64,000 bases of DNA from Cyanidioschyzon merolae (Eukaryota), in assembly GCA_000091205.1 (NCBI GenBank), contig AP006492.2, one strand, 5' to 3'. The position numbers and the translations under genes are program-made. Position 1 is the stretch's first letter. The number at the start of each line of letters is the position of its first letter. The notes below the pieces were generated by a model that ran no database searches, was not told the DNA's origin, and saw only the letters and a list, made by a program, of their open reading frames with translations. This document shows, in pieces, positions 1,563 through 56,246 of the stretch.

Positions 1563-2025
1563 ATTCGCGATAGCAGCCCAGAGAGAAGCTCGCCTGGCTT
1601 TGCCTTGAAAGGGCATTGCCGGGATGCGGGAGACCTGCATAGCTGCGTGTGATCGCTACGGTAGCTACATCAGTCAAGAGCTCGCGACTGAAGTGTACCT
1701 TTGCCGAAAATGCGTGGCACATGTCTCATACGATCCTAACGTAGCCTAGATGACTTCGTGAACTAGTCTGGACATTTGTAGCCTTATGTTCTCTGATGCT
1801 TCAGTCTGTATATGAGGCGACCGCAGATAACGGGTTTATACCTACCGACTTTTCACGCGACACATAAAAAAGTTATGGGCGCCTTGGACTTGCTCGTTGC
1901 GAGCCCGACACTATCGAAGAACGTCGCAATCCCAGAAAATTGCTACTGTTGTAGTCTTTGAACTCAACTTGGTCTCACCCTCGATGCTTGTGATCAAATG
2001 CATTCTCGCAGTGTATCGTAGGTTA

Positions 2026-2910
2026 CCGAAACCAGTATGAAATGTACCACACAGATCTGATACCGATTGCCTTCAGGATAATTCCTACTAAACAGTGCAA
2101 CGAGGACTGCATTCCTCCTTCAGGCCAGTGATACCACAGTACTCAGATGGTTGAGGAACACTGACAGAACCACGAATATGCGCTCAGCGCCAAAAAACCG
2201 ATATTTTCAAAGCCTGCTTGCGGTCAATGGTGTAAAACGCCCCGTTGATGACTCTAAACAAAGCAAAAGCCACGATAGTAGCCACCACTGGCGCCTGTGA
2301 GGCTCAACATCTTGTTCGTGTGGTTCTGGAAACAAAACACTGGGATACAGTCGCAAAAACAGAGTCCTAGATCAGGAACGGCCATCTTCCACCGAAACCG
2401 CATCGACAGCATTCCTGGAATGTTGCAATCCGCATAATGCAGCGGGACGTCGGTCTGTTGCTTTCAGTCGATGAGACTTCCTTCTGGCGAAGCAGTCCGA
2501 GCGTATATGGGTATTCGCTGCGAGGGAGCCCGTTCTAAGTACAATCGAACGCGAAGAGAAACGGGATACCATCATCTGTTCGAACCGCAGTGGATTCATT
2601 TTGCGACCTCAGTTTGGACTCCCAGTCAAGGCTCATACACAGCATCAACCACTTTATGGAATTATTGAAGACTGTCCCCTGACGCCTAGCGATGTCCTTG
2701 TATTGGACAAGGTGATCATTCACCTTTCCCTTTGCGTTCGAAGTTTTGCCGATTCTATCGGGGTAGGGCTGCTTTCTGTTCCTCAGTAGGCTTCGTATTT
2801 TAACGGCATCAAAGGAGCGTTTCGTATCGTGGAACGTAATCATCGCACCACTGGCCGAGTCGCTGAAGCGTTCAGCACACAGTGACTCCGAGGCACATTT
2901 CTTCATTCTT
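2026..2910 (+). repeat. Repeat IR-A, left copy (about 885 bp, no recognisable coding content). It pairs in inverted orientation with 16937-17825 and has a diverged third copy at 44060-44770.
   Basis: Manual alignment. The short ORFs 2471..2668(+) and 17178..17375(-) are identical apart from one residue, and 2372..2599(-) matches 17247..17474(+). The nucleotide match starts near 'cgaaaccagtatgaaatgtacc' and ends near 'ctccgaggcacatttcttcattctt'. Confidence 0.8.
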
Positions 2911-3059
2911 GCGAAAGTCACTCTCCGTCGGAGAAGTTCCCCAACTTAGGGCGTAAACAAGCGCATTCATTTGAAGAAATGAAAAGCCAGGGGACCTAAA
3001 GGACATGGAAGCCGAGGAGGCTGAAGGGCCGGTGTCGCCGGCTCCCGCAAAATAAACGA

Positions 3060-3410
3060 GCGGAATCCTGTTCTCGCTGACCATCGAGCGAAGAAGAGAG
3101 GAGATGGGCGAAACAAGGCATTTGTCCTACGGGGCGATGAAAAGACTAATGTGGCACAGAGGGCACAAATTCTGATAATCATGGCATTAATGAGTTCCAT
3201 CAGAGGCACCAAACGCATGGAGTTTGTGAAACGAGAAATTAACACTGCAATCAGTATCAGCGGATGTGCGGTTCTGAGGAAGAGGCCTCCGGAGTTGAGA
3301 TAATCCAAATTTGTGGGGGAATTTCTCAAGGTGGAATTCCACGGCGACAAGTTGAAGCCAGTAGTAAGGGGCCGGCCGAGAACGACTGAGAGGCGTCTGC
3401 ACATCGGTGG
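3060..3410 (+). pseudogene. 3' fragment of a family-A TnpB/Fanzor-like ORF, immediately downstream of IR-A.
   Basis: Translation 'KRMEFVKREINTAISISGCAVLRKRPPEL*' followed by '..[21 protein letters not shown]' is homologous to the C-terminus of 26406..27143 ('KQRMEFVNRGFNAAISIRRCAVLKTR...KLKPIAGGWSKKTGRRLHVGV'). It contains an internal stop. Confidence 0.6.
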
Positions 3411-4969: not shown

Positions 4970-7331
4970 AAGTTCCTACAGATAGATATCTGTTGCAGAT
5001 CTCTTAACCTTCGCCTCTGGTAAATCCTGCTCATGCTATTCGGAGCACTCGGTACGCTTTGCATCGTGCTGGGCGATCGCGCATGCTGCTCCCAGAAGAC
5101 GACGCAAACCAAAGCATTCCAGAATAATCCGCATATAGCACGTGTTGGTGCCCAAAGCACACCGTCTCAGCAAGCGCAATGTCGCTGAAAAGATGAGCCT
5201 ACATACGCTCACCAATCGCAAACTCGAATTAGAGCCCGTCTAGGCACCGCAAAGCTTTTCTGTAACCGCTGGTGACCACGGAAGTGGATCCGACGCCGCG
5301 GCACGCGTCTGCGGTAGGCTCGGGACCCAGACGGCTACAGCCGTCCGACCCGTCTAGTGAAGAATCAAACTGAAATGAAACTCTGACCTTCCTGCTGTGA
5401 TCGTACTTTGCATGCTTTTCCGACCGTTTTCTAGATGTGCAGCCCCGGCACTCGAACGATGGCAAGAAGCGCTTCAGGATTCATACGTAGTTTCCTGGTG
5501 CTGAGTTGCCGTTTCGGAGTCACTGCTTTGACGCTTTGTCACAGGAACTCGGTACGTAATCGAAATCGATATGGTTCGCTGCGCTCTAGGGCAAGGTTCA
5601 TGAAATAACAGCCGCGACCATCGAATTCATACGCAAAAGAATGCATTATTTTTGTTTTGTCACATAGTGCATGCTCGCATCACGCGTCTTGCATGTTTTC
5701 GATGTTTCTGTTTCAAGGCACCCGTGGGTGCAGTGATTCGCGCCAGCGGACTGAGGTGGAAAAGTAGTCGACACCGTTTCTCGATGGCATGCGCACAAGC
5801 TCATTCCATAAGCTTACTGAACCTGGTCAAGCCCAGTAATCAGTTCCGCTCGAAAAACAAGTCATCCCCTATTTGGGGCCATCATCCCCAAGAGAAACCC
5901 GGCATCGTAGTGGGCGTTCACGAACGCGGAAACCGGGGTCGTCATCGAGGATGGCCCCAGGTACCCCCGGATGACGTGTACTGAGCGTTGCAACAATCGT
6001 GTACGCAATGGAAAGTAGCCTTCGGACGAGCGTGTATGCTGGACGTACGGGAAGACCTGTCCAGTGTCAAGTGTGACCGCTGCGAAGCGGACACCGACGC
6101 TGTATACGAATGAGCTGACTGTAGCGAGCGACGTGTAGGTGGCAACTCGCGCTTGTGCATGAAATGCGTCAACAGCGGCTGCGAGTGGCGAAACCGACAC
6201 TTTCTACATTGCCATGAACGTCCATTGATTGCCAACAAGGGAGCTGGAGAGACAGATGAGACCGACATTGTTACAGCCGCGGATACGAGACAGGAATGGA
6301 AGCAGTCGTTCCAGGGCAGACAAGGGATGTTTTTATGTAATTTAGGGCGAGATCTGAAGATCTGTGTACCCGCCCGAGTTCGAAGAACCGTGCCTTTTTA
6401 TGCTGACATTGGTGTAGTTCTCTTTTAACTGATCGCAAACAACGCACCTATGCCGACATTTCACATGCTGTGATGTCGTGCCTGTGGTACAAGCTCAGCG
6501 CTGACACCTGGTAACCCTGCATTGCAAAAAGTTCTGCTATCCAGGATGCACAATTGTCAAGATTCCGCTCGTGATGCCAGGCACCGAAGCGCGAACCAGG
6601 ATGATGCTCCGCATAAAGATTTACTAGATATCTCTCTCGCGGGGAAGACCCTGCCAGTATGTATGAGTAATGGACAACTCTTGACTGCCTTAAGCTTCCC
6701 CGAAAGGACAAAGGCTCTTCACTATTTGTGCGGGTGCTTTACTTGCGTGTTTGAACTGTCGCAGACTTTGGTGCACTGCCAATACCTAAAGGGAACTTCG
6801 GGAATGAGCCACCAGGCCAAACGCACCGCCGCTCTGCGCTGAGAGCTCTCAGAATATTTTTGAGTACTAGCATGCTGGAGTTCGCAGACTCGTACTGCTC
6901 CGGTGCTGTGCATCGCGAAGCGTAGAGCCGAACTTCTCACATTAGCGGTATGTTAGGGGTTTCCGACAGAGACGAGAGTTCGCGCTTTGAGCTGTACCAG
7001 CGCTAGACGTTCTAGAAAATCAGGTATCTATACGTAGTTTGATCATCTACGCTGAAAGCTCTGCAAGTATTGAACGAAGAAAAAAAGCGAAGTTGGGAAT
7101 CTTCCATGTTACCACTACACCAGCAGCGCAGCAGGATGCGCTGCCCGGGAATCGTGCGGGATTACATAACCCGGGGCAGAAGAAGATTCCATATATCAAC
7201 GCAACTTAATCTCCAATTCAGTATATAAAGGTCGAGCTATTGTGACATTTAATCGGAACCCGGCCGCCGTACTGCTGGCTGCTCGAACCTACATATTTCA
7301 CGATCCGTAGTTGTGAAGTCGCTCTTGGGCG

Positions 7332-8379: not shown

Positions 8380-10978
8380 AGAAAGATCAAACGTATACAA
8401 TTTCAGCTTCCAGGTGCTACTATCTACAGGAAAACTGTAGAAGGGAGCCTTTCCCAAGAATCCAGCTAAGCTTCGCTAGAATGCGTCAGAAATTTCACCC
8501 CGCTAAAATGAATATCGTTGAACATGAACGATCGCTCCAACGTGGATCGCCGTTTCCAGGGTTTCGCTGACCCATGATCGCTAAACATACCCAAACGGTT
8601 GCATCGCTCTGGATATAATGTTTAGAGTTGTCTATGTGCTGCACTCGATTAAATGTCAAGCTCCCTTACTATTGTTCGATCGCTCGAAAAACACCCTGTG
8701 ATGACGAAACGCTCTGGGACCGTGACTAAAACGGACTTTCTGTCAGGCACCCCTGCGTTTTTGCGTGATATTGCCGACTTGTACCAAATAATAAAGCACC
8801 ATTATCGTACTCCAAATGCCCAAGGGAACCGTTCCCCGTGTATATATACGGCGTTCCTGCCTTACCGTGTTGCTGACTGCAAAAAATTGGGAACTTTTCT
8901 CGAGGCGGTGAACAACTGCCCCTTCGCCCAGCCACTGAGTTTCTTTCATCGGAATTGCTCGGCGTTTTAGCAGATTGCGCGCATTGGAGACTAAGCGATT
9001 TCCTCGTTATTTTTTTTGAAATAAAGCTGCTGGGCGCACTGGAAGCACAGAACATTTCCTGATGTTCGTCGGGCGGTTCAAGTCTCGGTAAAGAGAGTGC
9101 ACGCGCACATTTGTTGCGGAAGAAATTCCATCTCAGCAAGCCACGCACCTTCTATCGCCTCCCAACCTGACGTTCGACCAGCTTACTGTGCACCTTTCTG
9201 TGCGTCCAGGTCTGTTTATCTCTCCTCTCATCTGGCGGTTTCCGGGTCACCCATGATTTTGCATTTCTTTATGTCGTACTAAATTTCTCAATAGGAATCG
9301 CAGAGAATCGATTCCTGCACAGGCTGTACCATTCGTCGAAAGTGCAGCAGCGTAGCTCTCGTGCTTTACAGCACGTCAAGCGAATATGCTCCTTTCAGCA
9401 AAGGACTCGTCTTGTCTTACATTTCGTTTTCAAGGTCATTAAAAAATAGTCCGAATGTATGCCTCTCGTTCCGGTACAATGAGAACGGTTAGCGACTCAG
9501 AGCGGCATCAGCCACTCGAGCCAAAGATTATCGGCTTGAGTCATTGTGACATTCTTAGACACTCTGGCTGTAGTGAACTTAGCATCAGCCTCTGCTCGAT
9601 GCGAAGTTCAGAGCATCGACATGGGTCCTGATGCCGTCATTCCACTTGTTGGTATGCATCCTGGCTCCTTCCATGCCTGATTCACGTAATTAGTCAGCTC
9701 TGAGAAAACTGAGCAGCTTCATCTGCCTGTTTTCAAGCCCTCGGCTCCAGTCTATTGATTTAGAGGTACTGCCACGGCCTATATGCTCTGCAACCGGGGT
9801 TCCACGCGCACCGCAAAGTCGTTTCCTGCATCTACATTAAACGGCAGAGAATTCATCTAGTTCTTCGACGCACTCCGCGCCCTCACAAAAGACATGCGGA
9901 TGGATTTGCACTCGGTCGCTGCCCACCCCGCAGACTTCTTTCAAGTTATTCCATTAAAATGAAAGTCTCTGTTCGATTTTTGCCACTGTTCCCTCCAAAG
10001 TCCCTCGAATCCCTCATAATAGCTCGAAGAGGCCAGCCTTTGCTCACTGAGAAGTCCATGCAATACGGTACACCGGTTTCTGCCGTAATATGCTGACCCT
10101 CGATGTAAGATATATGGACCAAATCGAGTAGACGCTATAAGAGACAATGCCACTCGAATTTGGGGAGGGAGCGTACTCAGATCTGGAAGGTTTCGTCCAG
10201 GAAAACCTTGCAGCACAAGATGGAAGGAACACGTGCAGAAAGTTTCAACCATCCTCATGATATGACTTCTGTCGGCCGAATGCCGAGAGCAAGACGAAGA
10301 ATAGGTATGATAGAAACTGGCTCTCGCTATCGTTGCGGCATCCCATCTGCCACCACCGGCTCGCAATTTGCTTCCATCGATGTCGCAAGAGCCCTCTCCG
10401 TCAAAGATCGCTTAATTCCGCCCGACGCGGGTAGGCACAACGGGTACTGGGCCAAGAGTATGCGCTTCATACAGCGCTCGAGATTTAGCGGGTGCATGGT
10501 TTTGTTTTGTGGGTTAGCTTGATACTTTTCGGCACCAGCGATGAAGGTACTTTCATTATCGATGTGGCATGAGCAGACGACAACGTATTCTGGGAAGCAC
10601 GTGTTCTGATTTCTGATTCTGCGATGACGGCGCTTTACATATTCCACCCTAAGCATCAGTCGTGTTAACTCACGAAAGGTCGATTGAAACATTTCAATGG
10701 AATGCGGACAGCTGGCGTTCTGCATCGAGAGTTCGTACACAGAGTTGTGAGACGGGGAGCTTCAGTTCAAGGCGAGCGGAGCGACATTCCTCGAATGAGG
10801 AGGTACACGGTGCCTAATGGCATCCTGCTCCCTAGTTTTGGAAGATTCTCCCGGGTGAAGTGTTTTAGCAGGGAGTCTTTGATTGCGTTTCCAGAATAGT
10901 CTTTTCGCTTGGAAACTTTTCCTCTTCTGTGTATCCTCTTCGACAGTTCAGGGGAAATTTCCATGTTTTTCTTTTACT

Positions 10979-12172
10979 GTGCGAGGTGGCATGGATGCGG
11001 TGGCAACACTCCATGCCCGGTTTTCTCTCGAAATACAGACGCGATGGACAGGCGTTGATACAGAAACTCGCTCCCTCCTATGTATACGTCTCGTTCTACT
11101 TGAGGATCCATTCCTCACCTTTCTCGAACTGGGAGCCCCAACCGACCGGAGAGCTCGTTTCCGCTCGTTTCCGCCCACGAGCCGAGCAGCAACACAGCAG
11201 TTCCTGTGCACCAATAGCAGACAACGCATTGTCGAAGAACGATTCGCCATCGAACCGAGTCGCGGATGTAAAAGACTCGCCTGCGCATTGGTGCCCATGG
11301 AAATGGCGTTCGCCAACAGAGCAGATGCGTTCGACTGAACTCGACCGGGGCGAATAGGCTGGTACGAGGAGCAGCGCAGCGCCAATGTCACCTGCGTGCT
11401 CGTTGACCTCTTCAGGGTGATGGAAAGCGACGTTGACGCAGAGTCGCACGGAGCCGTGTAAGAACGAGACGCCGTGGAATGCTGCGAAGAACAAGCATGA
11501 GGCGTTCAAGACTTCGACCCGTTTTCCGACGCAAAGCAAAACACACGACTCAGTCGCCGTCTGGGCAGATACTCTCGGAATGCGCGTGTGTCGCTTCTCT
11601 GTGAACACTTGTTGCTCCCGCTCTGGGTGCCCGTACACATGTCCCCCGTTTCTCCCGAACGAGGTCTCATCGAGTGTGACGAACATCTGCCATCTGCATG
11701 ATAAGCGTTCGCATGCCCCCGCGAAACTGGCAGCACGGAGCTCAGCGCGGAACGTTCTCGCACAGAGGCGCGTTTTTTCCTGTGTCCATGTGCGTCCCTT
11801 TATCACCGTCCGTTTCAACTGTGCGGAGATTGCACACCTTGTGTCTCTTAGATGCTATTTCGCAGATAATATATGTGGAGTGGAACGCATTCATGTCGGG
11901 AATGCAGTGCAGACAGAGCCAAATGTGCTCTGTCTGGTGAGTACGACTTGCAGCAAAAGGACCACGAGAACAGCGGCTGATCTACCTGCCGACCAGAGAA
12001 TACCTGACATGGACAATAAAGACCGTTTTCTTGGCAAGCTAGCACAGACGGCAGGAAGTGTTCCCGCGACCGTTCTCCCACCTACGGGATACAACCTTTT
12101 GTTGAATATTCGCGAGGTAAGAAAGGTATAGCAAAGAAAGCCGTGCTGGTACAGGTGTTCAAGTATTTATTT
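10979..12172. repeat. IR-B left arm (about 1.19 kb), an inverted repeat partner of 13527-14712.
   Basis: Paired ORFs have identical lengths and near-identical sequences on opposite strands: 11433..12131(+) against 13566..14264(-), 232 aa with about 6 differences; 11096..11818(-) against 13879..14601(+), 240 aa identical. The nucleotide ends were aligned by hand: the left inner end is '...ggtgttcaagtatttatttatctgtgg' and the right inner start is 'agtaaatacttgaacacctgtacc...'. Confidence 0.85.
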
Positions 12173-12606
12173 ATCTGTGGGAAATAGAAAAAGATCAAAG
12201 TAGACCGCCTCTATAGAAGAGCAACTGTGTACGAAGGCCTCTGCCTGAACTATATGCAGCACCTAGATCCAATCATTGAGAATACCGTTGCACGTTCGAC
12301 ATGTTTCTAAAGACACATTCTAGATACGCACACGTTCGCAGATGTTTCAGGTATTTGGATGCTCGTCGCGTGTCCGCCAGCAGCCTCATTGAGGAACAGC
12401 TCATTATCCGCTTGACCAATTCTTTCCAAAAGCAACCGATTCGATGTGCGCCTACGATGCGCTGGGGGTCGCCCACGGCATGTTCTAAATTTGGTTCCAA
12501 GTTTGTCCTTGTTATTACAGAATTGATCGGATTGGGTGCAGCGGCGTCCGGCGCCACCGCAGTGCCGAAACGAATGAAGAGTCGTCTTCGTCTAAGAGTA
12601 ACAACC

Positions 12607-13266
12607 ATGGTTACGACGTCGATCAAGCTGCAAAAGCGTCTCGCGGCAGCTGTTGCCGGGGTTGGTAAGAAGAAAATATGGGCTGACCCGGCAGAGATCG
12701 AGAAAATCGCTCTTGCGAACTCACGCCAGTCCGTGAGGAAGCTGCTACGGGATGGCGTCCTTGTCCGCAAGCCGCCAGCAATGCACTCGCGTGCGCGTGT
12801 ACGTGAGCGCCTTGAGGCGAAGCGCAAAGGTCGCCACACAGGACCAGGTAAGCGGAAGGGTACAAGGGACGCACGCTTGCCCCAGCGCGTCGTTTGGATG
12901 CGGCGGCAGCGCGTTCTACGACGTTTGCTGCGCAAATATCGCGCGCAGGGTAAAATCGATAAACACCTCTACCATGAGCTTTATCTCAGGTGCAAAGGCA
13001 ACGTCTTCAAAAACAAGCGAGTGCTTATGGAGCACATACACCGGGCTAAAGCAGAGAAAGCACGTGAGAAGGCCATTTCTGAGCAGCTGGAAGCGCGCCG
13101 TATGAAGAACAAACTCCTTCGCGAACGTCGAGCAAATCGCGCGGAGGAACGCCGGTTGAAGGAAGCAGGCATTTCAATGGAAACTACTGAGCGAGAGGGT
13201 GAGACTGCGAGCAGGTCTCGGCGCCGACGTGGCCGCCGCGACGAAGCACTTGCCGCTGATAGCTGA
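12607..13266 (+). CDS. RPL19: 60S ribosomal protein L19e.
   Basis: '[112 protein letters not shown]' matches the L19e consensus essentially end to end (the 'KRKGRH.G.GKRKGT..AR.P' core). ATG is at 12607. The ORF-track extension from 12301 is an upstream in-frame artefact. Confidence 0.9.
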
Positions 13267-13526
13267 ATGCGCTTAAGCACAATGCGGACGGCTTCGTTCC
13301 CGGTAGCCTGTTACGCAGCATCTGGAATCCTCGTCGAATGACATACCAAACTGAGGCACCTAAGAACTTGCATCCCTGATACTGAAACGCAAGTCTATCG
13401 AGTTCATCGGTCCGCTTCCGCGCTACATTGTACTCCGGCGGTCAGCAGCAGCTCGATTGGACAGCGCACAAGAAGGCACTTTCACTCTACCAGGGACGCT
13501 TTAAGCGTCTTGTTCTACTCAGATCA

Positions 13527-14712
13527 GTAAATACTTGAACACCTGTACCAGCACGGCGTTCTTTGCTATACCTTTTCTATCTCGCGAATATTCAACAAAA
13601 GGTTGTATCCCGTAGGTGGGAGAACGGTCGCGGGAACACTTTCTGCCGTCTGTGCTAGCTTGCCAAGAAAACGGTCTTTATTGTCCATGTCAGGTATTCT
13701 CCGGTCGGCAGGCAGATCAGCCGCTGTTCTCGTGTTCCTTTTGCTGCAAGTCGTACTCACCAGACAGAACACATTTGGCTCTGTCTGCACTGCATTCCCG
13801 ACATGAATGCGTTCCACTCCACATATATTATCTGCGAAATAGCATCTAAGAGACACAAGGTGTGCAATCTCCGCACAGTTGAAACGGACGGTGATAAAGG
13901 GACGCACATGGACACAGGAAAAAACGCGCCTCTGTGCGAGAACGTTCCGCGCTGAGCTCCGTGCTGCCAGTTTCGCGGGGGCATGCGAACGCTTATCATG
14001 CAGATGGCAGATGTTCGTCACACTCGATGAGACCTCGTTCGGGAGAAACGGGGGACATGTGTACGGGCACCCAGAGCGGGAGCAACAAGTGTTCACAGAG
14101 AAGCGACACACGCGCATTCCGAGAGTATCTGCCCAGACGGCGACTGAGTCGTGTGTTTTGCTTTGCGTCGGAAAACGGGTCGAAGTCTTGAACGCCTCAT
14201 GCTTGTTCTTCGCAGCATTCCACGGCGTCTCGTTCTTACACGGCTCCGTGCGACTCTGCGTCAACGTCGCTTTCCATCACCCTGAAGAGGTCAACGAGCA
14301 CGCAGGTGACATTGGCGCTGCGCTGCTCCTCGTACCAGCCTATTCGCCCCGGTCGAGTTCAGTCGAACGCATCTGCTCTGTTGGCGAACGCCATTTCCAT
14401 GGGCACCAATGCGCAGGCGAGTCTTTTACATCCGCGACTCGGTTCGATGGCGAATCGTTCTTCGACAATGCGTTGTCTGCTATTGGTGCACAGGAACTGC
14501 TGTGTTGCTGCTCGGCTCGTGGGCGGAAACGAGCGGAAACGAGCTCTCCGGTCGGTTGGGGCTCCCAGTTCGAGAAAGGTGAGGAATGGATCCTCAAGTA
14601 GAACGAGACGTATATATAGGAGGGAGCGAGTTTCTGTATCAACGCCTGTCCATCGCGTCTGTATTTCGATAGAAAACCGGGCATGGAGTGTTGCCACCGC
14701 ATCCATGCCACC
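13527..14712. repeat. IR-B right arm, an inverted copy of 10979-12172.
   Basis: See the left arm entry. The outer end is near '...catccatgccacctcgca' (14693-14712). Confidence 0.85.
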
Positions 14713-16439
14713 TCGCATAGTTAAGGGGCACAAGAAGAAGGAAGCGGTATATATAAGCATCAACGTTGCGTTCGAACTACTTTGCAAAGCGCGGTGGCGG
14801 CGCTTGGACAAGGTTTCTCGATAACAGGAAAGAAATACCGGAAACGTTTATCCGGACGATGGAGACCGACGGGATGCCAACCAGCATGCACCTTGCGGCA
14901 CGTATGCCAGAGTCGAGCAGTCAGACTCATTTCCAACCGTTCAAGGTTGATGAACAAACAGAGACTTTGTGGTCGGGGTCGATCCGTGACACTCGGCATC
15001 ATAGCCGTCTCCGTACCCCTGAATCAAGAGGGCGGTGCTAAAGACCTACAAGGAGAGCAGATAAAGCAGCTCGAATTTTCCAGTGCTCGATATGATCGGC
15101 AATCGGGCATGGTAGACGCCAGGCGGCATACCATCCAGAGGAATGGTTGCTCGAGAGCCCATCTCGACGCCCTGAGGACGGTAGCGCGCAGAGGGTAACG
15201 CTTTGTGCGCCTCACTCAGAGGGGGAGCTCATGAGCGTCAAACTGGCTCCAGCGGACGATCTTTGACAAGAACGCGTGGTGCCGAGCAGGGAACGCACAT
15301 GGTGCCGGCTCCGCAGAGGCGAGAAGCTCGTGTTCGCAGACTTTGTGGATGATGTGGGAAACGAAGTGACCGCCCAGTAGGGTCGATTGACGGTAGCCTA
15401 TAGCGCTGGACCTACTCCAGCTCACAAAGTCTGCAGTGATGCTCGCTCCCGTCGAGAGCTTGCTACAAGTTCAGGGATTGATTCTGCACGATTTCGACCG
15501 ACGCATTCACACCGTCATGCACGCAGCACGATCTCGGGAACAGGCTGAAACTTGTCGAGAAGAGGCGATTGAATTAGAGACCGTTGCACGAGATGGTGTG
15601 CGATACGCTGCTTGAACGCCCGATGGCGAGGCAATCGGAGATGCAGAGACTGCTGTGGTGTGCTTTCACCAGCCACAATGTGCTCAGGTTCTTTCTGCAT
15701 CGCGAGTTGATCGCCTCGATACACATCTGGCAATGTCTCGTGGTTCCGAAGCGCACAGCGGCTGTGTCGAGCGAACTTTCGGGAAAATCGTCTAGTTCTG
15801 CTTGTTGGCATTGCACTGACTGCCTGCAAGCTGTCGGTAAAAGCGCATCAGTGTTCAAGAACTGCCCGACTGAATGCCCGCTCGGAGCATAGCGCTGGTA
15901 CGGTATGGGTGAGCAATCGAGCGAGGCTGAAGCGGCCTGCTCATACAACGGGATCGGTTTCTCGGGGCAGAGGATGATTGGTAATGGTGTTCGAGTATTC
16001 GATCTTACTGCGTTTGAAGCAACCTAGAGTCCTGTTCCAAATAATCTCTTTTGCCCGAGATAGAACCCATTTGCATTTGCGCCGATATGAGCAGGTCCGT
16101 GTGGCAACGTGGATGAGAGCGTTCTGGAACTCGAATCAGAAAGGTGCGTTCCCTCTCAGCATCCAGCTAAACGCAACTTCTGAAACACGAAACTCTATTC
16201 GATCCGTAGATTCGACCAGCGAATATTTCGTCTTCCCTTGCTCAGAGAATTTTGTACGGATAGAGATACGATGGAACCGCGGCCTCCGGGAGTTCCGCTC
16301 ATGCACATCAACTGTTGCAACGGGTGGTGCTTTTGGCAGTCCCCATCGCACTGCAAGAACCTGGTCCATCTGCGTTGCGTCAACGAGCACCACGACAGAA
16401 GAGCTACGAATTTTCACAGTAATTGTTCTCAGATGGCGT

Positions 16440-16900
16440 CGCAACATACATTTGTTCAATGGAACGAAAACGTTTCGCGACCGGAGGATAAATTAAGCCC
16501 CACCCGCAGACGTCTCCCAGCCATTTTCGACTGGTCTCCTGCTATCGTTTCAGTTTTTATCCAGCCACATTTCGAGACTGGTAGGCCCTCCCACAAAGTT
16601 GGATCGCCTCTGCTCCGCGGGCCTCGTCTGCAGCACCGCACATCTTCTGATATTGAGAGCGGCGTTAATGTTTCTGTTTATGAACTCCATACGTTTCTTG
16701 TCGCCGCTTGTACTCTCCAGTGCAAGTGATACTCGAACTCGTGCCCTCTGTGCTATTTGCTGCTTTGCCAGCTCTCTGTACTTTTCTATTGCCGAAGCGC
16801 TTCGCTGGCTCTTCTCCATTGCGAACTTTTGAAGAGTAGACCCCAGCTCATCCCATAGATTTCTTGATTTTGAAAATGAATGCACTACTTTCTGCTCGTA
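16440..16900 (-). pseudogene. 3' fragment of a family-A TnpB/Fanzor-like ORF plus the conserved 3' tail, on the minus strand and adjacent to the IR-A right copy.
   Basis: ORF 16550..16885(-) contains 'KKRMEFINRNINAALNIRRCAVLQTRPAEQRRSNFVGGP', a RuvC-III-like 'N..NAALNI' motif. The reverse complement of 16440-16500 reads 'gggagacgtctgcgggtgggg...ggtcgcgaaacgttttcgttcc', which matches the element's 3' tail. Confidence 0.6.
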
Positions 16901-16936
16901 GGTGAGGGTCGTGCCGGAGGGATAAGGAATTGCAGA

Positions 16937-17825
16937 AGAATGAAGAAATGTGCCTCGGAGTCACTGTGTGCTGAACGCTTCAGCGACTCGGCCAGTGGTG
17001 CGATGATTACGTTCCACGATACGAAACGCTCCTTTGATGCCGTTGAAATACGGAGCCTACTGAGGAACAGAAAGCAGCCCTGCCCCGATAGAATCGGCAA
17101 AACTTCGAACGCAAAGGGAAAGGTGAATGATCACCTTGTCCAATAGAAGGACATCGCTAGACGTCAGGGGACAGTCTTCAATAATTCCATAAAGTGGTTG
17201 ATGCTATGTATGAGCCTTGACTAGGAGTCCAAACTGAGGTCGCAAAATGAATCCACTGCGGTTCGAACAGATGATGGTATCCCGTTTCTCTTCGCGTTCG
17301 ATTGTACTTAGAACGGGCTCCCTCGCAGCGAATACCCATATACGCTCGGACTGCTTCGCCAGAAGGAAGTCTCATCGACTGAAAGCAACAGACCGACGTC
17401 CCGCTGCGTTATGCGGATTGCAACATTCCAGGAATGCTGTCGATGCGGTTTCGGTGGAAGATGGCCGTTCCTGATCTAGGACTCTGTTTTTGCGACTGTA
17501 TCCCAGTGTTTTGTTTCCAGAACCACACGAACAAGATGTTGAGCCACACGGGCGCCAGTGGTGGCTACTATCGTGGCTTTTGCTTTGTTTAGAGTCATCA
17601 ACGGGGCGTTTTACACCATTGACCGCAAGCAGGCTTTGAAAATATCGGTTTTTTGGCGCTGAGCGCATATTCGTGGTTCTGTCAGTGTTCCTCAACCATC
17701 TGAGTACTGTGGTATCACTGGCCTGAAGGGGGAATGCAGTCCTCGTTGCACTGTTTAGTAAGAATTATCCTGAAGGCAATCGGTATCAGATCTGTGTGGT
17801 ACATTTCATACTGGTTTCGATCTCC
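16937..17825 (-). repeat. Repeat IR-A, right copy, inverted relative to 2026-2910.
   Basis: See 2026-2910. Confidence 0.8.
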
Positions 17826-18660
17826 TGCTATACACCACAGCGGGAGTGAAGCAAAATTGAGTCGAACGACTTTGAGCCTAAGTGCACTCTTTAAATTTGG
17901 TGAGCTGATATGATGCCTACCAGGAGTAGCAGTGCAATTTGCGTGTTTTTCACCAGACCACTAAAAAAGAGCGCATGTGCGGACCTGGAGCACGAACTAG
18001 CTCGAGAATACAGAAGTGATGTAAACCACCGATGTGTCGTGCACTGATGGTTCAGCGACATTGCAGGTCTGAGAAGCAGTATGAAAAATTTGGAGTCAGT
18101 AATCTTATCGCCTCAATAGGCCGGGAAGCGTCTTTCGGAAAGTACTCCAGTGCAAGTATTAGATACGGTGTGACAAATTTGAAGCCATTCATCAGGTCTC
18201 TTTGAGCGATGTGGATACATCTTTCAGAAACTCAGGCTAAAAGTGTTCATAATTATGGAATAAAATGGAGCTGTGCCTCTGCTCCATTCAGCGCCGGATT
18301 CGTTCATATTCTCAAAAAAAAGCTCCTTCCAGATGCTCCTCCCGTTCTGGAGAAAGTATTCGAGGAGATCGTTATGTACGCTGCATTCCGTTCACAAACA
18401 CAGCATTGCATGATGCGATAAAAACACTAGAACGCGTCCGGTGTACCGGGTTAGGCTGCTACCAAGGTTCTGCCGAACGTGGAAAACTCTAAAACAGCAC
18501 AAGACGCTGAATAGCGCGCACCGCTAGAAACAAGCCTATGCTGGTCACGTCGCGGCGCGTGGTGGAACAACGAATCCGTGTATTCCACATACACTGAAGT
18601 ACCGCATGAAAATTCCCAAAATTAAGCTGCGGTGAAATAAGTAGAACTGAAGTACTGCTT

Positions 18661-23558: not shown

Positions 23559-24839
23559 TGGCTTGAACTCACAGAGGAAATTCTCGTGCGCGCAACAAAA
23601 AGGTGATGTCACTCAAAACCAAGAAGGACCAGAGCGGAGGGCTCCATCGGACCACAGCGCTAACATCGCTGCTGCAGGGCGATCCTGCCTTTGTTTCTGG
23701 AACTCTTTGTTCACCCCAAAGATCGAAATTTACTCTAGGTGTTCGACAGTTATCGTCTCGCGTGCAGCAAACAGAAGCGATTGCTCCGGCTGAGCGAGAT
23801 AGCGACAGTCGGTTTCTCTCGCCACCTTGGGTATGGGCTAAGCTGCTTACTGGCTCAGAAAATCAACTGAGCAAACAGTGCCCGACCAATATAGGTGGCT
23901 TTACGCGCAGCGCTGCACACTGAAGCGTCGAAGTCGAACGAGAAGTTCATTCATTGATTGACTGCAGCGCTTTGAGGCAAGCCTATCCTCCGGCGCGCCT
24001 TTCATGATGGAGTGGGACGACGAAGCGACGTGACCGCTGGCATTCGCGCGATGCAGCTGCGGCAATTCTTATTTCCGACGACAAAACGTTCACAATTACC
24101 GATGGATACCATATCGTGGGATGGGTATTGGCTTTAGGGAAAGCGTCCATCATGCTGCTGCACCCTACCTGCAAGTTCCATTAATTATATTTCCGTTCGG
24201 ATACCCTGGTCGTTTCGCACGTCCTGCGGTGCGCCCGGTGTATCCTGTATGCACCCGCCTTTGAGTTTGTACCGCTAGACAAGATGCATCACAGAGAAAG
24301 AACGGTTTTGTCACACCACAGAGCGCGTTGGCCCGAGGCATCGTTCATCTGAAACGGGGTCGGGGTTCATATCATTCTGGGAGGCTGCAAGCTGTGCAGA
24401 CAGACCTACTGCCTGCGACAGCGCGAAGCGATTTAGTAGGAGTTCGCCGCTGCAAGGGGGACGCCCAGACGCTGCATGCCCCATAATTGTCACAGGATGA
24501 ACTGTGTAGCGGACGGGCTGCTCAGATCTCACTACGGTACCAGCCACTGCAGAGTTGCACAGAGCAGCTGCCCGGCAGGCTCATCGGGCTCCGGTGACCT
24601 TTCGCCTGAACGAGAAACTTTCGATGATCCGTAAAGCTTCCCTCCTTCTAACGTTTTCTGTGGAGGGGGAACGAAATTGTTATCGATCTGCTAGTTAGTG
24701 TTTAGTATTTGTTCTTTGCTCTCTACAGTGAGCTCCATAAGCGCACCTCCATATCCGGCATGCATGATACAAGACGTGCATCTTGCTGTTTAAGGGAAAC
24801 TCGATCCTGAAAAGTCGTCCTCCTTTTGTGCTAATGTAG

Positions 24840-27200
24840 AAGGTGTATTTACGTTCAAGTCATAGCAAAATTACAGTCATTCATTTCAATTGTGTTTCAA
24901 CCCTCAAGTTAGTATATTCAAGTGATTTTTCGCGGTTTGTAGCTGAGGCGCTCAAAGTGCGTTCGTTTCCTCAAATAAAAAAATAAAGTTATGGAAAATG
25001 AAGTGGAGGATCCTGAAGGGCCCGTGTTGCCCGCTGCCGGAAAAAAGTAAAAACAGTGCCGAGGATAGAGGAACAGGAGAAGACAAAGAAGCAGGGGGGA
25101 GACGTCAAAACGAACTCGAAAGACAGCACTACGACGAGAATGTAGTGCAAGCCTTTCTGCTATGGCATGTCAAGGATCCCTACAAATAAAAGTTGCGGGA
25201 GGCCGTCAGAAACCGTGTCGAGTCGTACTCCACGAGTATTCTTGAGGCTTCTTCAGGATTAAGGCATCTGGCGTAGCACAAGTATCGCGAAGTGACGGAC
25301 CTTAAAACAGTTGAGGTTCCGGAAGAATTTTTCGACGAAACCTTTATTCGTCACCAGAGGCTTGTCACAGAGAAATGTGGAAGAGAAATGAGCGAGCCTG
25401 TGTCCTCCACGAAAACTTCGCCGAACATCGCTTCAACAGAACTCGATACAGGGGAACTCGAATATTTAGAGATACGGTACAATGAATCATCTCACGAACC
25501 TGAAGAACCATGTGACCATGAACCTCAAAAGCTTCATGATACGCGCCGTGTTTGCGCTTTACCAGGGCCTCTCTCACAGAGCGAGATGAGCGATTATCGA
25601 TGGCATCACGAGCGATAATAAGAATGAACAGGAGATAGAATTCGTCGACAAGAAGAGATCACACAGGAGAAAGAAAGAAGTCTCTGCAATCTGTGTGGTA
25701 CTGGAGCTGGCCAATCCGGTAGAAAAGGTATCAGAGATGGAAAACGATGGAAAAGATGTTATTCCATCATTCTGTGTTAAATCGTGATCCTGAATCGAGA
25801 GCTCGAACGCAAAGCGGAGGTGGAGCCGGCTGTGAAAAAATGAAGAGTCGGAGAAAAGGAAGGCTTTTCTGATAGAAAAGCGCTTCAATATCGTTCCTTA
25901 ATGCAACATCGAGTGGCGCTTGATGACCATCGACTACATAGCCCTCCATGGCATCATTAGCGATATCAGTCCGGAGTTTGATGTAACCAGGAGAATTTTT
26001 ATGGTGAAAGCCAGGATACTGTTTGGAAGAATATATTCGATTTCAAAACTTTCAACACAAGCAAGAAAAGGTATCCACGGGAATCATCGAAAGCGATGGG
26101 GCATCCATATGCGTACCCTATCGGCGCTTGAAGGCGGATCGGTCTTTTCTGTTTTCGTTGTTGCCCCTAGCGAAGCATGAATAAAAGAAGGAGGCAGGTC
26201 CTATCACGCATGGGATGCAGGAGGACGTCATTGTCGTCAGCGTTGACCCTGGGAACAAGTATATCATGGCAATCGCAGTATCCAAGTCTGGAAAAGACGG
26301 CATTGACTGTAACTTACGTCAAAAAGACATGCAGCTTTTGAAGCTCTCAATAGCGAAATATTACCGAGAGTCCGGAATAATGCATGCAAGGAAGAAAAGC
26401 GAGACGTGGAATTGAGGAGTGAAGGAGCACCTGGAAGCGATCAGCCAGATGACGAGCCGAGGAGCGGACTTTCAAGCTTTTCTGGAATTGATGAAAATTC
26501 GCGCTGCTCATTACGAGGCGCTGTGGAAAGAGTACACAGAGACCTCGTGGGCTCGTCAGCGTACGAGCCTGTGCGGAGAAAAGAAGCGTGCATTCACCAA
26601 CTTCTTCAATCAGTTGGGTGCCCTCAAGGTAGTCAAGAGTCAAAGGCTCGTAGCAGCGTGCGGAACAGGGCGCTGGGCGTCCAAAAAGGGAACATTCCAG
26701 CTCCATCTACAAGAGCGTACAAAGAGTACGCACATCGTTTTCTCACAGTACCTATGGATGAGTTCCGAACGTCATGCATACACCATGAGCTGGGGTGTAC
26801 GCTCCGGAGGGTCGTGACGGGAAAGTGTCGGTTGGGCTCTGATGATATCGAAAATTACGGAGAGCTAATGGAACAGAAAATTGAAAGGAGAGCGAAAGTT
26901 CGAGGACTACATGCATTAGTGAGTACAAGCAGCTGCAAGCAACGTATGGAGTTCGTGAATCGAGGCTTTAACGCTGCGATCAGTATCAGGAGATGTGCGG
27001 TGCTGAAAACAAGATCCGCGGAGTTGACAAGAGCCAAGTCTCTGGGGCAATCTTTCAGACTCGAAATGTGCAAGAAGAAGCTGAAGCCGATAGCAGGCGG
27101 CTGGTCGAAAAAGACTGGGAGGCGTCTGCACGTCGGTGTATAGACATAAACTCTATGGTTGTAAAGGATTCGCCGTTTCTTTCATCCTCGGGGAGATTAT
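24840..27200 (+). mobile_element. Family-A element, copy 1 (about 2.4 kb). It encodes a decayed TnpB/Fanzor-like RuvC nuclease, frameshifted and with internal stops.
   Basis: The 5' region matches copy 2 ('agt.tattcaa.tgatttttcgcggttt.tagc...ataaa...gttatggaaa.tgaagtggagg'). ORF pieces show a RuvC-I-like 'VVSVDPGNKYIMAIAVSKSG' (26215..), then '..KKRAFTNFFNQLGALK..RLVAACGTGRW' and 'AYKEYAHRFLTVPMDEFRTSCIHHELGC' (the TnpB 'YKA...V.P..TSQ.C..CG' zinc ribbon), then the RuvC-III-like 'KQRMEFVNRGFNAAISIRRCAVL' (Pfam OrfB_Zn_ribbon consensus '..dRDvNAAiNIlrrg'). The 3' tail is 'gggaggcgtctgcacgtcggtg...ctctatggttgtaaagg'. Confidence 0.65.
26215..27143 (+). pseudogene. TnpB/Fanzor-like nuclease ORF remnants of copy 1 (RuvC-I through RuvC-III), split across at least two frames.
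   Basis: ORFs 26215..26415, 26419..26817 and 26406..27143 together carry the RuvC-I, zinc-ribbon and RuvC-III motifs listed for the element. Frame changes near 26700 indicate inactivation. Confidence 0.6.
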
Positions 27201-36801: not shown

Positions 36802-37779
36802 CAGTCGTATTGTTACATGAAGCTTTCATCGAATATGACGAGAGGGTGACGTGCAGCTGGCAGCCGCGTGTCCGGAGCTCGAACATATAGTTGCTTTACA
36901 AGGTGCATCAAGACGAGGGAAGCTATGACAGCCTTTGCTCTGTTGGGAAACTATGCGATTTCGAACTGCATGCTATACCTAATGTTTGGAAGAATCTCGC
37001 CGTTCCTGGTTTTCAATAGAGAGGCCCCGACGATGGTTTCAGAGCAGTTTTTCAGCTTCGACAGTTTTCCTTCCTCTCGCTCCTTGTCCTCTTTTCGGCA
37101 GGAGTTTCCTCTCGTTTGTCTGCTGGGAACTTCTTCGCTATACATAGGAGGGGCGGCATTAATGTGGCCCCTACATTCCATATGCATTTTTTGGAACTAA
37201 TACGCACTGGGTGGACAATTGCGTTGAATCTCGTCTTTTCAATGGATGTATCGATAATTCCTTAAGTAAATTTTTGTCACGTTTTTCGCCGCGAGCACTA
37301 CCACGGACCAATGTGCGCATTTCGGCTTCTGCCGGTCCACAATCAGAGAAGCAGCAAAGCAGATCGGGGTTTGTGAATGTAGCCAAAGATTTGTCGAACG
37401 GCTGTGTCACGGATGCGAATAAGTGGTCTATTGAATCGTGAGCTTGGAAACGGAGGTTGAGAATATAGAAGATGCCTCAAACCGGATTAAACCAGGCAGA
37501 AAACGCTTGGAAGAAGAGCTGTTCAATTTCAATCTCAGCAGCGTACTCCCTGACCGCCTTAGAGTCATGGGAAGCGGTGTTAAGCGAGAACGGAACGGGA
37601 ATACGTGCAAAGGGGAATCTACGAATTGCTGCGACGAAGCGTGAGGTTTCTTTACAGATCCCATTCGTTTAACGCTTTGTGGACGACCACACGGGTGGCT
37701 CCCCATTAGCGTTGATATTGTCGTTATTCTCGATTGTCTCTCTCTAATGATGGGGGGTTGCCCCTTTCCGAGCACGTAT

Positions 37780-38230
37780 TCACAGGTCTCGAACTTCTCC
37801 CGAATGAAGTACCATCGAGTGAGAAAAGCGCCGGCCCTTTCTATAAGAAATGTGCGTGTTTCAGTGTGAAATCGATAGAGTGTTTCGCAATGCAAGACAG
37901 TATCAAAGTGAAGAGGGGGTTCTCACTTTTCTATTGGCACCTTTTCATCACCGTTCGTAACAACGGAGCGGAAACTTCACGCCCTCTTGCTTCTCACACC
38001 AAATTTGTAGGAGAACTTGGATTATGAAATGGTTTGACGACGAGATCGTCGTGGAGATACATTTTTTCAAGTTATGTTCTTGGTGCGCGACGTGCAAGAA
38101 AAGGACAAGAAGAAGGGTGGTTGAGCCATCTGCAACCATAGAATGACTGACTTGGACAAGCAAGACCGGTTTTCGCAAGCTAACGGCGACAGCACAACGT
38201 GTTTCTGCGGCCCTTTCAGTCTAGAATATG
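37780..38230. repeat. Family-C non-coding repeat, copy 1 (about 450 bp, about 70% identical to 55310-55760).
   Basis: Shared blocks are 'cttctcccgaatgaa...atcgagtg', 'gtttcagtgtgaaatcgat', 'aagaagggt.g.t.a.ccatctgc..acc.tagaatga.tga' and 'g.ttttcgcaagc.a.cg.cgacagca'. Confidence 0.5.
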
Positions 38231-39795
38231 CAGTTTTCAGTTGAGTATCTGTGAGAAAAATAAACGAGAACGAAAGGATTTGTGTTTCCAGGTATGTGGA
38301 ATTCGCTGCTCTGAGCACAGCGCATGTAGGCCTTGTTGTAGTGCGATCCTTACAAAGACCTAAATTCAGCTAAAATATGTTATAGGGCCCACGGTACGAA
38401 CCAAGCTTTCCTCAATTGACGAAAGATGCCTGTCGTCAGGAAGAAACCTTGGTTGCTATTCAGATGATTCTACGTTTAGTCGGCCTCAGAACGGTATTCC
38501 TCTGTGGAACAGAAGCGAGATGTGCGGTTCTTCTGGATTTTGTATCCAACGATGACGACACATGGATACCGGACAACCTGGTCATATCTTTGCGGTCTGG
38601 GGCTGGAGCCGTGGCTCACCCGCTGCCGCACCGGGAACCGTCGTCTATCTGGGATCCGACTGGCTGAGTGGACAGGACTGCTGGTGGTGATATGGAAAGG
38701 CACGCCGGAGGAACTTCACGACCGAGCAGAACCTCGGGAACTGAGCGCCGCCCACACCTGCGCAGAAGGAACGGGTTCCACTTGGACTGCGCAGACTATC
38801 TAGACTTGCCAACGGTCGCGAATTTTTGCGGATACCTGCCCAGCGTAGAAGTCCGCGGGACTCTCTACAGAGATGTTAAGCGTATTGAAGTGTGTGGGGC
38901 TTCTCCCGCAGGTATCGCTGGTGGAAAATTGCACACAGTACTGAATCTTCGGTTTCTGTGTTTGTTTGATATGAGATTCAATTCCTGCCAAACCTTTCCG
39001 TAGTATTATCTCGTATGATAGTAGAGTGGCAGTATCCAGCAGGCACAACTCGGGTCATCGTCGATTGTGGTGCGAACACTTATTATCGTTGGGGGCATTT
39101 CAACTTTTTGCAGATGAAATCGCACCCTTCCCTCTTTCTAATCGTCGTTCTTTTCGATGCGAAGGTGCTCATCTGGCAGAGAACAAGTGTTCATTGGTTA
39201 GGCTGTCTAAACAAAGATTTTTAATTCCCGGAGATGGCCGATCAGCTTCGGCGCAGTCATTTGATGGGTCCAACTGTCTCTTCAGTCCTATTTCAATGTT
39301 TCGACTTTTTAGGTTGCACGGCATCAGAGGCGTTCTCCGGGATCCGGCGCACTGTTCTACTCAGTTGCCTTGTGCAAGGTGGACAGTTTCGCAAGTCGAT
39401 TCGATATTGCGTTGCAATTCGTCCCAAGTCGAGGACGCGGAGACTACGTTGGCTAAAACCAATGCACCCATGCATTGCTAAAAAGCAGTCCGGAAGACGT
39501 GGTGACTGCCTCACCCACCTTTTTCAACCTCACTTAGCTTGCAAGAAGTCTCAGACGCTTTCTTTTTCGGATTAATTCTGAGCAGCATGAAACGAGTGTC
39601 TTTCTCGGTATGAGCTATGTATACGTGTTGTGCAGTTCACGTCTTGGTCATTATTCATCGATCGATTTCCAAAGGATACCAGTCTTTCCAGCCCCAAAGG
39701 AACGGGGCGAACCGCAAAAAAAATATACTTCATGCAGACTTCTCAGTCGACGAATTGCAAGCCTCGAGTAAGTTTATATCAGCTTGCTCTACTCA

Positions 39796-55309: not shown

Positions 55310-55760
55310 GCATGTCTGGCTCTTCTCCCGAATGAATTCTTATCGAGTGCGACGAGCAGCCGTCTCTCTTGGACTCAGCGTTGACGTTTCAGTGTGAAAT
55401 CGATCAAGCGCTATTCAACGCGCGACGGTGTCGCGCAGAAATGTGCTTTTCGCCTCGGCCACCAGCGTCTCTTCATCACCGTACGTGTCAACGGTTAGGA
55501 AACTTAGTATCCTGTTGATTATTCAGCAGAATTCATTAGAAAGCTTACGGAGTGAAATGGAATGACGAGGAGACAGCCGTGCAGGCACTGTTTGATGAGA
55601 TATGTTTCTTTGGCATGACATTCAGAATAAGAACTACAAGAAGGGTCGCTTATCCATCTGCTGACCTTAGAATGATTGAATTCTATAAGTAAAGCAGCTT
55701 TTCGCAAGCCAGCGACGACAGCAAAGCATCTTTCCGCGACCTTTTTCCAATAAAAACAAG
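55310..55760. repeat. Family-C non-coding repeat, copy 2.
   Basis: See 37780-38230. Confidence 0.5.
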
Positions 55761-56246
55761 AAATGCCTTGTGTTATATACCTGAGAGAACAAAAAACGAA
55801 CACAATAAGAGCCTAGTGGTATAATTATTCCAGAATCCGCTGCTCTAAATATATCTGCTAGCATGCTGGTGCTGTCGCGAGGCGCGAACGCTTTGTGTAG
55901 AGACCTCATGCGGTATCATGACGACCTTTTCACTTTTCCGGGAGAATGTGAACATCCTGGTATTTGGCAGCGGAGTAGCCAAGCACTTTAGCAACTGAGC
56001 ATTATTCACAAACAGCAGGCGCGAGTACGCAGATTCGGTTTTTAATCTCCCAAGATAGTACAGAGGACAGGTACACGAAAGCGCAACTCTGACTTGGGCT
56101 CATTCCGAATACGTTTCTTATCATTACACGCAACCAAACCTTCAAAAATAACGTTTCGACGGGCCCAAAGTCTGCGATTCTTGTCATAGCTACAGCGCTT
56201 AGAGGCATCTGTGGGAAAGCTGGATAGCAACAGCGGATGTAGCGCC

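Follow-up and report, generated by a model that had tools for sequence, protein, structure and literature searches.

Near-identical inverted arms around the RPL19 gene of Cyanidioschyzon merolae as probable products of homogenisation between two old transposon copies

The gene for ribosomal protein L19e (RPL19) of the red alga Cyanidioschyzon merolae stands between the arms of a near-perfect inverted repeat, in a 64,000-nucleotide (nt) stretch of contig AP006492.2 (assembly GCA_000091205.1; chromosome 10 of strain 10D) that is referred to here as the window. We consider it probable that this repeat consists of the homogenised 5′ blocks of two old, dead, and oppositely oriented transposon copies. 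An earlier reading of the letters of the window (the original prediction) had offered either very recent duplication or ongoing gene conversion as the source of the near-identity. Very recent duplication was not borne out, the arms being the 5′ 1.2 kb of element copies that are otherwise 55%–60% identical; conversion is the better of the two explanations, given the identity profile of the copies, the identical core of the arms, and the mosaics formed by their markers.

A repeat search places the arms at 10973–12177 and 13520–14724, each 1205 nt in length and 99% complementary to the other, with a spacing of 1342 nt (12178–13519). The near-perfect repeat of about 1.2 kb around RPL19 described in the original prediction is thereby borne out; its location was correct, and its limits (10979–12172 and 13527–14712) fell 5–12 nt short at each end. 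Global alignment of the two arms yields 15 mismatches and no indels (98.76% identity). Of these mismatches, four are confined to the 110 nt next to the outer end and 11 to the 250 nt next to the inner end (10975, 10979, 11027, and 11082 in left-arm numbering, the remainder between 11928 and 12172), leaving a core of 845 nt that is 100% identical in the alignment (11083–11927, partnered by 13770–14614). In 200,000 random placements of 15 differences, an identical run of this length was never matched (P<5e-6), and divergence is around 4% at the arm ends as against 0% in the core. Neither tandem nor internal subrepeats are present in the arms, and a target-site duplication around the whole structure is lacking, the flanks at 10965–10972 and 14725–14732 having none in common. 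Beyond their outer ends, the arms run on into diverged sequence of the elements described below. All three observations speak against the likeness to a foldback element that had been suggested earlier.

The spacer (12178–13519, plus strand) carries a complete RPL19 unit, identified by Pfam, by a protein match, and by an environmental contig (L001). The coding sequence at 12607–13266 contains PF01280 and PF25476, its product is an exact match to 10D protein BAM80199.1, and it is accompanied within the spacer by about 430 nt upstream and 253 nt downstream; RPL19 is indeed, as had been predicted, the main content of the spacer. The neighbouring v-SNARE gene corresponds to BAM80198.1, and CMJ064C and CMJ067C follow downstream.

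Both arms contain the relic of a transposase, and the earlier view of them as lacking any coding signal does not hold. In the right arm this relic is a 240-codon open reading frame (ORF) at 13879–14601 (plus strand), with its first ATG at codon 45; an identical ORF occupies 11096–11818 on the minus strand of the left arm and rests on the same evidence, namely Pfam, HMMER, and alignment. The two ORFs are oriented away from RPL19. As the original prediction had it, the 240-residue pair is identical and a second, 232-residue pair differs at six residues. Against Pfam, the 240-codon ORF alone reaches DDE_3 (PF13358) only below threshold (E=0.009); a phmmer search of 1.84 billion representatives, however, returned 66 relatives at E<=1e-3, the best non-self match scoring 6.5e-23. 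These relatives are environmental proteins of about 300 residues that match DDE_3 at E values of 1e-18 to 1e-28 and also carry HTH_Tnp_Tc3_2, HTH_23, or HTH_33. When they are aligned back to the right arm by tblastn, homology extends over 13558–14502, with two in-frame stops in the N-terminal part: residues 27–242 of relative P0207 fall on 13852–14502 (E=3e-34), and residues 9–297 of P0210 on 13558–14490, reading through the in-frame stops. The N-terminal stretch of the latter (residues 9–88), where a helix-turn-helix would be expected, aligns with 13558–13800 in one frame and crosses both stop codons.

Alignment with the relatives indicates that the first catalytic aspartate (DETSFGR) and the glutamate are kept in the relic. 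The second aspartate has become valine (LCVNVAFHH in the arms versus LLDNVAFHH in the relatives), such that an intact D-D-E triad is missing from the arm ORF, and the glutamate motif reads PAYSPRSSSVE where the relatives have PPYSPWFNPIE. In the relatives, 34 residues separate the second aspartate from the glutamate, which is DD34E spacing. Polymorphic sites within the ORF among strains are spread 7:7:6 over the three codon positions. The stops, the Asp-to-Val change, and this even spread mark the arm ORF as a pseudogene that is evolving neutrally and derives from a transposase of the IS630/Tc1/mariner superfamily. Three translated N-terminal arm fragments gave no match in Pfam, and the arm ORF gave none in sequence searches of NCBIfam and the Protein Data Bank (PDB); an AlphaFold2 model built on the single arm-ORF sequence was unusable (mean pLDDT 30.5).

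The arms are parts of longer elements, of which the window contains four copies. Copy R, a full element of 2488 nt at 13518–16005 (plus strand), is delimited by terminal repeats, TA flanks, and the joins of contigs from Yellowstone; the right arm is its 5′ block, as indicated by the repeat search, alignment, and tblastn with the environmental DDE_3 transposases. Copy L lies inverted with respect to R at 8787–12179 (minus strand), is about 3.39 kb long with an approximate 3′ end, and was delimited by sensitive BLAST and the identity profile. The left arm is its 5′ (transposase) block, differing from the right arm at 15 of 1205 positions and occupying a position collinear with another copy. That copy, C3 (34901–38330, minus strand; about 3.4 kb), is diverged, being 54%–62% identical to L and R. 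C4 (53384–55860, minus strand; about 2.5 kb) is a further diverged copy; both were recovered by sensitive BLAST and alignment. Copies at the 55%–60% level were found with a BLAST word size of 7 and +1/−1 scoring, and repeat searches at default sensitivity missed all of them. The E values for homology between copies range from 1e-54 to 1e-112, which speaks against the similarity of the 3′ halves being mere noise of alignment. C3 and C4 keep a putative SLRK..L..V.HS relic of the helix-turn-helix, which in C3 reads SLRKPVLLVQVSHS. Pfam returned no match for eight ORFs taken from the 3′ halves of the four copies.

Copy R has the form TA|CTCAGATC...TTCGATCT|TA, the TA dinucleotides lying at 13516–13517 and 16006–16007 as read at the filled site. 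Its terminal inverted repeats pair 13521–13550 with the reverse complement of 15979–16005, with 24 of 27 aligned positions matching and a 3-nt indel; the alignment score of 33 compares with 19.3 +/- 3.6 for shuffled sequences. The 3′ terminus is supported by Yellowstone contigs bearing a malic-enzyme gene, which join the window at around 16007–16010. Within the 1205-nt arm taken by itself, only chance-level matches to terminal inverted repeats occur.

It is the comparison of the copies with one another that sets the arms apart. In a four-way alignment, L and R are 94%–100% identical over columns 0–1230 and 44%–65% identical thereafter, whereas the pairs R–C3, L–C3, R–C4, L–C4, and C3–C4 remain at 48%–67% throughout. 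Outside the arms, L and R are about 55%–60% identical overall, the level at which they also resemble C3 and C4, and identity within the arms is 98.8%. The outer homology is nonetheless plain: 14912–15796 of R matches 9869–8990 of L at 60% (E=6e-56), and 8787–12074 of L is collinear with 34915–38215 of C3 (E=1e-112). Relatives of the arms themselves, about 58% identical, are found in C3 and C4 at 37130–38263 and 54652–55851, contrary to the earlier statement that no other repeats related to the arms occur in the window. Across the arm boundary, L and C3 are of nearly equal length (3288 versus 3301 nt), so that the left arm must stand in place of the original 5′ block of L and is no addition to it. 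R lacks some 870–950 nt that L and C3 possess, and this gap starts no more than about 5 nt from where the arm ends on its outer side. As a separate observation, the genome paper counts eight class II elements genome-wide (PMC1955436), as against the four copies seen here in 64 kb; annotation may have missed members of the IS630/Tc1 family, or they may be concentrated on this arm of the chromosome.

Comparison of orthologous loci, which the original prediction had proposed as a check, was made with Cyanidiococcus yangmingshanensis (L008) and four related metagenome contigs (L004–L007), and neither insertion is present in any of them. The gene order in all five is Spt4(+) E2(+) vSNARE(+) L19e(+) GluTR(−), GluTR being glutamyl-tRNA reductase, and no homologue of the arms is present around L19e, where there is just about 1.9 kb before the gene and about 0.9 kb after it. 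Since the sister genus lacks the arms, both elements were gained in the Cyanidioschyzon lineage and RPL19 occupies its ancestral position.

Wild relatives, by contrast with the sister genus, share the structure. Contigs of C. merolae-like strains from Yellowstone are 98%–99% identical to the window (divergence from 10D about 1.3%), and the probable source of many of these samples is the metagenome and metatranscriptome series of Lemonade Creek (PMC11662350). The contigs carry all four junctions, that is left flank to arm, arm to left side of the spacer, right side of the spacer to arm, and arm to right flank. Three contigs (L009, L013, and L014) run from the spacer through an arm into the right flank, and three others (L017–L019) from an arm into the left flank. 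Contig breaks fall at the arm edges: L001 corresponds to 12193–13523 of the window, and L003 and L035 begin at 13525. As the Yellowstone strains share every junction, the structure predates the split of about 1.3% between them and 10D.

The Yellowstone contigs also reveal a further young copy, here called the third copy, between the genes for AFG1 and malic enzyme. The inner end of its arm lies about 16 nt after the AFG1 stop codon in at least eight contigs (including L010, L017, and L019–L023), and its element 3′ end is about 870 nt beyond the malic-enzyme stop codon (L025–L032). This copy has the form TA|CTCAGACC...TTCGATCT|TA, with the same termini and TA flanks as R. AFG1 and malic enzyme are neighbours in Cyanidiococcus and Cyanidium alike; AFG1 of 10D is BAM80192, six genes before the v-SNARE, and the third copy should lie about 20 kb to the left of the window in that strain. 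Markers in the arms form mosaics among the three young copies and several strains.

The history that best accommodates these observations would begin with the insertion of IS630/Tc1/mariner copies on either side of RPL19 in the Cyanidioschyzon lineage, after its split from Cyanidiococcus. These copies would have been head-to-head, their 5′ ends facing the gene from about 430 nt upstream and 253 nt downstream. L (about 3.4 kb) and R (about 2.5 kb) would have belonged to subfamilies already diverged before their first 1205 nt became near-identical by non-reciprocal transfer, through either gene conversion or template-directed gap repair. One limit of the transferred tract would be the element terminus, beyond which there is no homology, and the other would be the point at which collinearity between R-type and L-type elements is lost. 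A conversion or replacement tract, as opposed to plain duplication, is favoured because of these tract limits, the identity profile, and the restriction of differences to the arm ends. Later rounds of arm-to-arm conversion would then have kept the block uniform, with the central 845 nt identical in 10D; such repetition after the first event is suggested by the identical core with its ends of about 4% divergence, together with the marker mosaics. The transfer may have started through break-induced repair, through gap repair after transposase cleavage at the terminus, or through replication template switching, or it may have started between 5′ blocks that were originally more similar. L is perhaps the more economical recipient when the copies are compared, because the R type is represented by at least two full copies with TA flanks. 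The mechanism and the direction of the conversion are thus matters that we infer, as is the flipping of the spacer considered below.

Several points weigh against this history. Conversion is hard to start between sequences that are about 58% identical, which would imply either that the 5′ blocks were once more alike or that double-strand-break or template-switch repair was at work. The distance to C3 and C4 is the same for either arm, so the data themselves give no direction of transfer. The terminal repeats of R are modestly significant, one of 500 shuffles having reached the observed score (maximum 34), and copy L lacks clean TA flanks, its last 2 nt being different. The third copy, finally, is seen in the environmental relatives only.

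An alternative is that the left arm arose by recent local inverted duplication, or as a fresh, truncated R-type fragment of 1.2 kb that landed upstream of RPL19 and abuts an older element by chance. The 98.8% identity and sharp ends of the arms would suit such an origin, short-range jumps and residual 5′ fragments are common among DNA transposons, and a young subfamily with at least two full copies does exist. The collinearity and conserved length of L and C3, however, would require that the insertion coincided with deletion of exactly the homologous old block, and the end of the fragment falls where R-type and L-type collinearity is lost, which is expected of a conversion tract and not of random truncation. 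The left arm also lacks TA flanks, and divergence of about 4% at the ends with 0% in the core is unlike a single recent copy; we regard this origin as unlikely. Less probable by a wide distance is a composite transposon, comparable to Tn10, Tn5, or 'Tn630', that captured RPL19 and is able to move it. Two inverted IS630/Tc1-type copies do bracket a single gene with their outer ends facing outward, and yet RPL19 still adjoins vSNARE as it does in Cyanidiococcus and the four further contigs, hence it has not been moved; capture is ruled out by this ancestral position. Both transposase genes are moreover dead, L and R are unequal in length with outer halves only 55%–60% identical, and comparison of the sites at about 8787 and 16006 gave no target duplication that they share.

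The perfect identity of the 845-nt core could also be expected if a repeat had been collapsed or mis-joined in the reference assembly. The 10D genome, however, was finished telomere-to-telomere (PMC1955436), and independent Yellowstone contigs, from metagenomes and from Logan, show every one of the four junctions and terminate at the edges of the arms. These contig sequences exclude an assembly artefact, to which we give the least credence of the readings weighed here.

The original prediction had likened the arrangement to invertible promoter or gene switches. In its strongest form, this would be a functional invertible cassette, comparable to a phase-variation switch or to the FLP system of the yeast 2-micron plasmid, in which flipping is kept because it alters RPL19 expression or yields antisense RNA. 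Nearly identical arms, and the occurrence of both spacer orientations among contigs (flipped in L011 and L018 of the environmental set; reference in 10D, L009, L013, and L014), are what such a switch would produce. Against it, neither a serine nor a tyrosine recombinase was found, Pfam searches of every ORF in the arms and spacer having returned just L19e and the DDE_3 relic; the sole coding relic is a dead DDE transposase without codon-position constraint. The RPL19 promoter presumably lies within the spacer, which contains the whole gene and 430 nt upstream, so its orientation should be neutral and should not turn the gene on or off. Cyanidiococcus does without any such structure, and the contigs with a flipped spacer were assembled from short reads through a repeat present three times, for which the recovery of all six flank combinations is also the expectation for chimeras. 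With no recombinase and a spacer that holds the entire RPL19 unit, the likeness to a switch falls away, and a functional cassette of this kind is very improbable. Searches of the whole window with Rfam (at gathering thresholds) and ARAGORN gave no match. No evidence for a regulatory role of the repeat pair was obtained, and the pair probably has no function of its own.

If the arms are homogenised transposon blocks, as we favour, passive inversion of the spacer is a separate matter. Contigs that cross an arm include all six combinations of inner sequence (AFG1, left side of the spacer, right side of the spacer) with outer sequence (left flank, right flank). A flipped RPL19 cassette is represented jointly by L011 and L018, and the reference orientation by L009, L013, and L014, all being short-read assemblies through a repeat present in three copies. 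The six combinations are predicted by recombination between the copies and equally by chimeric short-read assembly through a repeat of 1.2–2.5 kb, and phasing of arm haplotypes across contigs did not separate true inversion from assembly chimeras. Flipping of the RPL19 spacer is no more than plausible. The fuller proposal, in which cassette flips and recombination among the three copies have generated coexisting variants in the wild Yellowstone population, including a 1.3-kb flip of RPL19 and inversions of about 20–25 kb, is one that we advance only tentatively and hold to be rather doubtful.

Some Yellowstone contigs contain further joins. L009 (3447–6609) departs from the window sequence at 15952, within copy R, and runs on into genes for CDC48 and a CAP-Gly protein that lie outside the window; this join reflects either a fourth young copy elsewhere or an assembly chimera. 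Five contigs (L009 and L013–L016) part from the window sequence at most 8 nt from the start codon of RPL19 (12610–12620), at an 8-nt palindrome, CGACGTCG. The partner sequences at this site are of three kinds: an Rbx1-like gene, codons 52–79 of RPL19, and unrelated sequence. The join to codons 52–79 is of circular or tandem type, with GTCG and CAC microhomology. A very abundant transcript has probably given rise to these joins as RNA or library chimeras, odd though their recurrence at one site is. The intergenic region between E2 and v-SNARE (5669–6417) also has paralogous copies in the Yellowstone strains (L017, L020–L022, and L025–L028), one beside a patatin gene at 94%–95% identity and another beside the 3′ end of FAN1 at 98.6%; the region is one more repeated segment of this neighbourhood of about 40 kb.

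The claim that the RPL19 repeat sits inside a larger inversion domain bounded by inverted repeats is supported. An outer pair of 962-nt arms, 96% identical to each other, is located at 2011–2972 (left) and 16874–17835 (right). The 10D order, GluTR(+) | E2 vSNARE L19e(+) | Spt4(−), differs from that of Cyanidiococcus by a simple block inversion encompassing E2, vSNARE, and L19e, and the breakpoints of this inversion coincide with the outer repeat. The plastid-type glutamyl-tRNA reductase gene at 12–1562 adjoins the outer repeat, and its orientation relative to RPL19 is opposite to that in Cyanidiococcus because of the block inversion. Immediately beside the outer arms, 165 nt (3154–3317 versus 16753–16590) are just 72% identical, so that a uniform block lies within diverged copies as it does at RPL19. 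The outer arms belong to another dispersed repeat, copies or fragments of which lie at 2011–3409, 16453–17835, 24080–27129, 44072–45370, and 57866–60230 with 65%–76% mutual identity. Some ORFs of this repeat end in ...MEF(V/I)NR.(F/I)NAA(I/L)(S/N)IRRCAV, resembling the C terminus of TnpB/Fanzor proteins. On the basis of the literature, it is probably the 253-copy 'WSV486-like' element of the genome paper (PMC1955436), equivalent to CMe-1A, a Fanzor1 element (PMC3627910); Pfam and PDB searches of its ORFs gave no matches and did not confirm the CMe-1A label.

Among known systems, arm-to-arm conversion keeps the arms uniform in the palindromes of the human Y chromosome, in the FLNA–EMD repeats at Xq28 (where there is an inversion polymorphism), and in the inverted repeats of plastids, which undergo flip-flop. 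The RPL19 repeat resembles these in its kilobase-scale arms of about 99% identity, its short, unique, gene-bearing spacer, the patchy distribution of differences, and an arm identity far above that of neighbouring paralogous sequence; like them, it offers a substrate for inversion. It differs in that its arms are only 1.2 kb, are parts of diverged transposons, and are limited by a terminus and an indel, and in that inversion of its spacer is a candidate only. With the IS630/Tc1/mariner elements (DD34E, DDE_3), the copies share a transposase of about 300 residues with a DDE_3 domain, DD34E spacing (in the relatives), TA flanks, and short terminal repeats, and an N-terminal helix-turn-helix is a possible further likeness. 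Unlike typical members, they are dead (Asp to Val, N-terminal stops), measure 2.5–3.4 kb with a 3′ half of more than 1 kb devoid of recognisable coding, and have imperfect terminal repeats that start 3 nt inside.

Abortive gap repair with template switching is known to give rise to chimeric or deleted P, Ac/Ds, and mariner-type elements. A block copied from a family member, with its junction at a structural discontinuity, is common to those chimeras and to the present case; here, however, donor and recipient are inverted neighbours, and the product is a long inverted repeat around a host gene. As in Tn10 and Tn5, two inverted elements of insertion-sequence type flank a gene, but here the two are unequal and no longer active, the gene has kept its ancestral position, and nothing indicates that the unit has moved. 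The locus is best described as a new example of a known phenomenon, transposon-derived inverted repeats homogenised by conversion, and not as a new kind of system. What makes the case unusually readable is that the tract limits coincide with an element terminus and an indel.

C. merolae is known for efficient homologous recombination, and the likely consequence of the repeat is mechanical, since 1.2 kb of 99% inverted homology constitutes a substrate for that process. Such recombination could flip the self-contained RPL19 cassette and, together with the third young copy about 20 kb away, could drive larger rearrangements. C. merolae serves as a minimal eukaryotic genome and has been described as almost transposon-free, the reported content of 10D being 26 retroelements, eight 'class II' elements akin to bacterial transposases, and an interspersed element in 253 copies (PMC1955436). 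Here, four diverged IS630/Tc1-type copies are present within 64 kb, and ectopic transfer between two of them would have built a long inverted repeat around an essential and highly expressed gene. The finding counsels caution in annotation, in gene targeting near RPL19, and in short-read population genomics of the Cyanidiophyceae. The locus also lends itself to a simple assay, by PCR or long reads, of inversion and conversion rates; if flips and inter-copy recombination do occur in the wild, it would be a natural reporter of mitotic and ectopic recombination and of gene conversion in an extremely repeat-poor alga.

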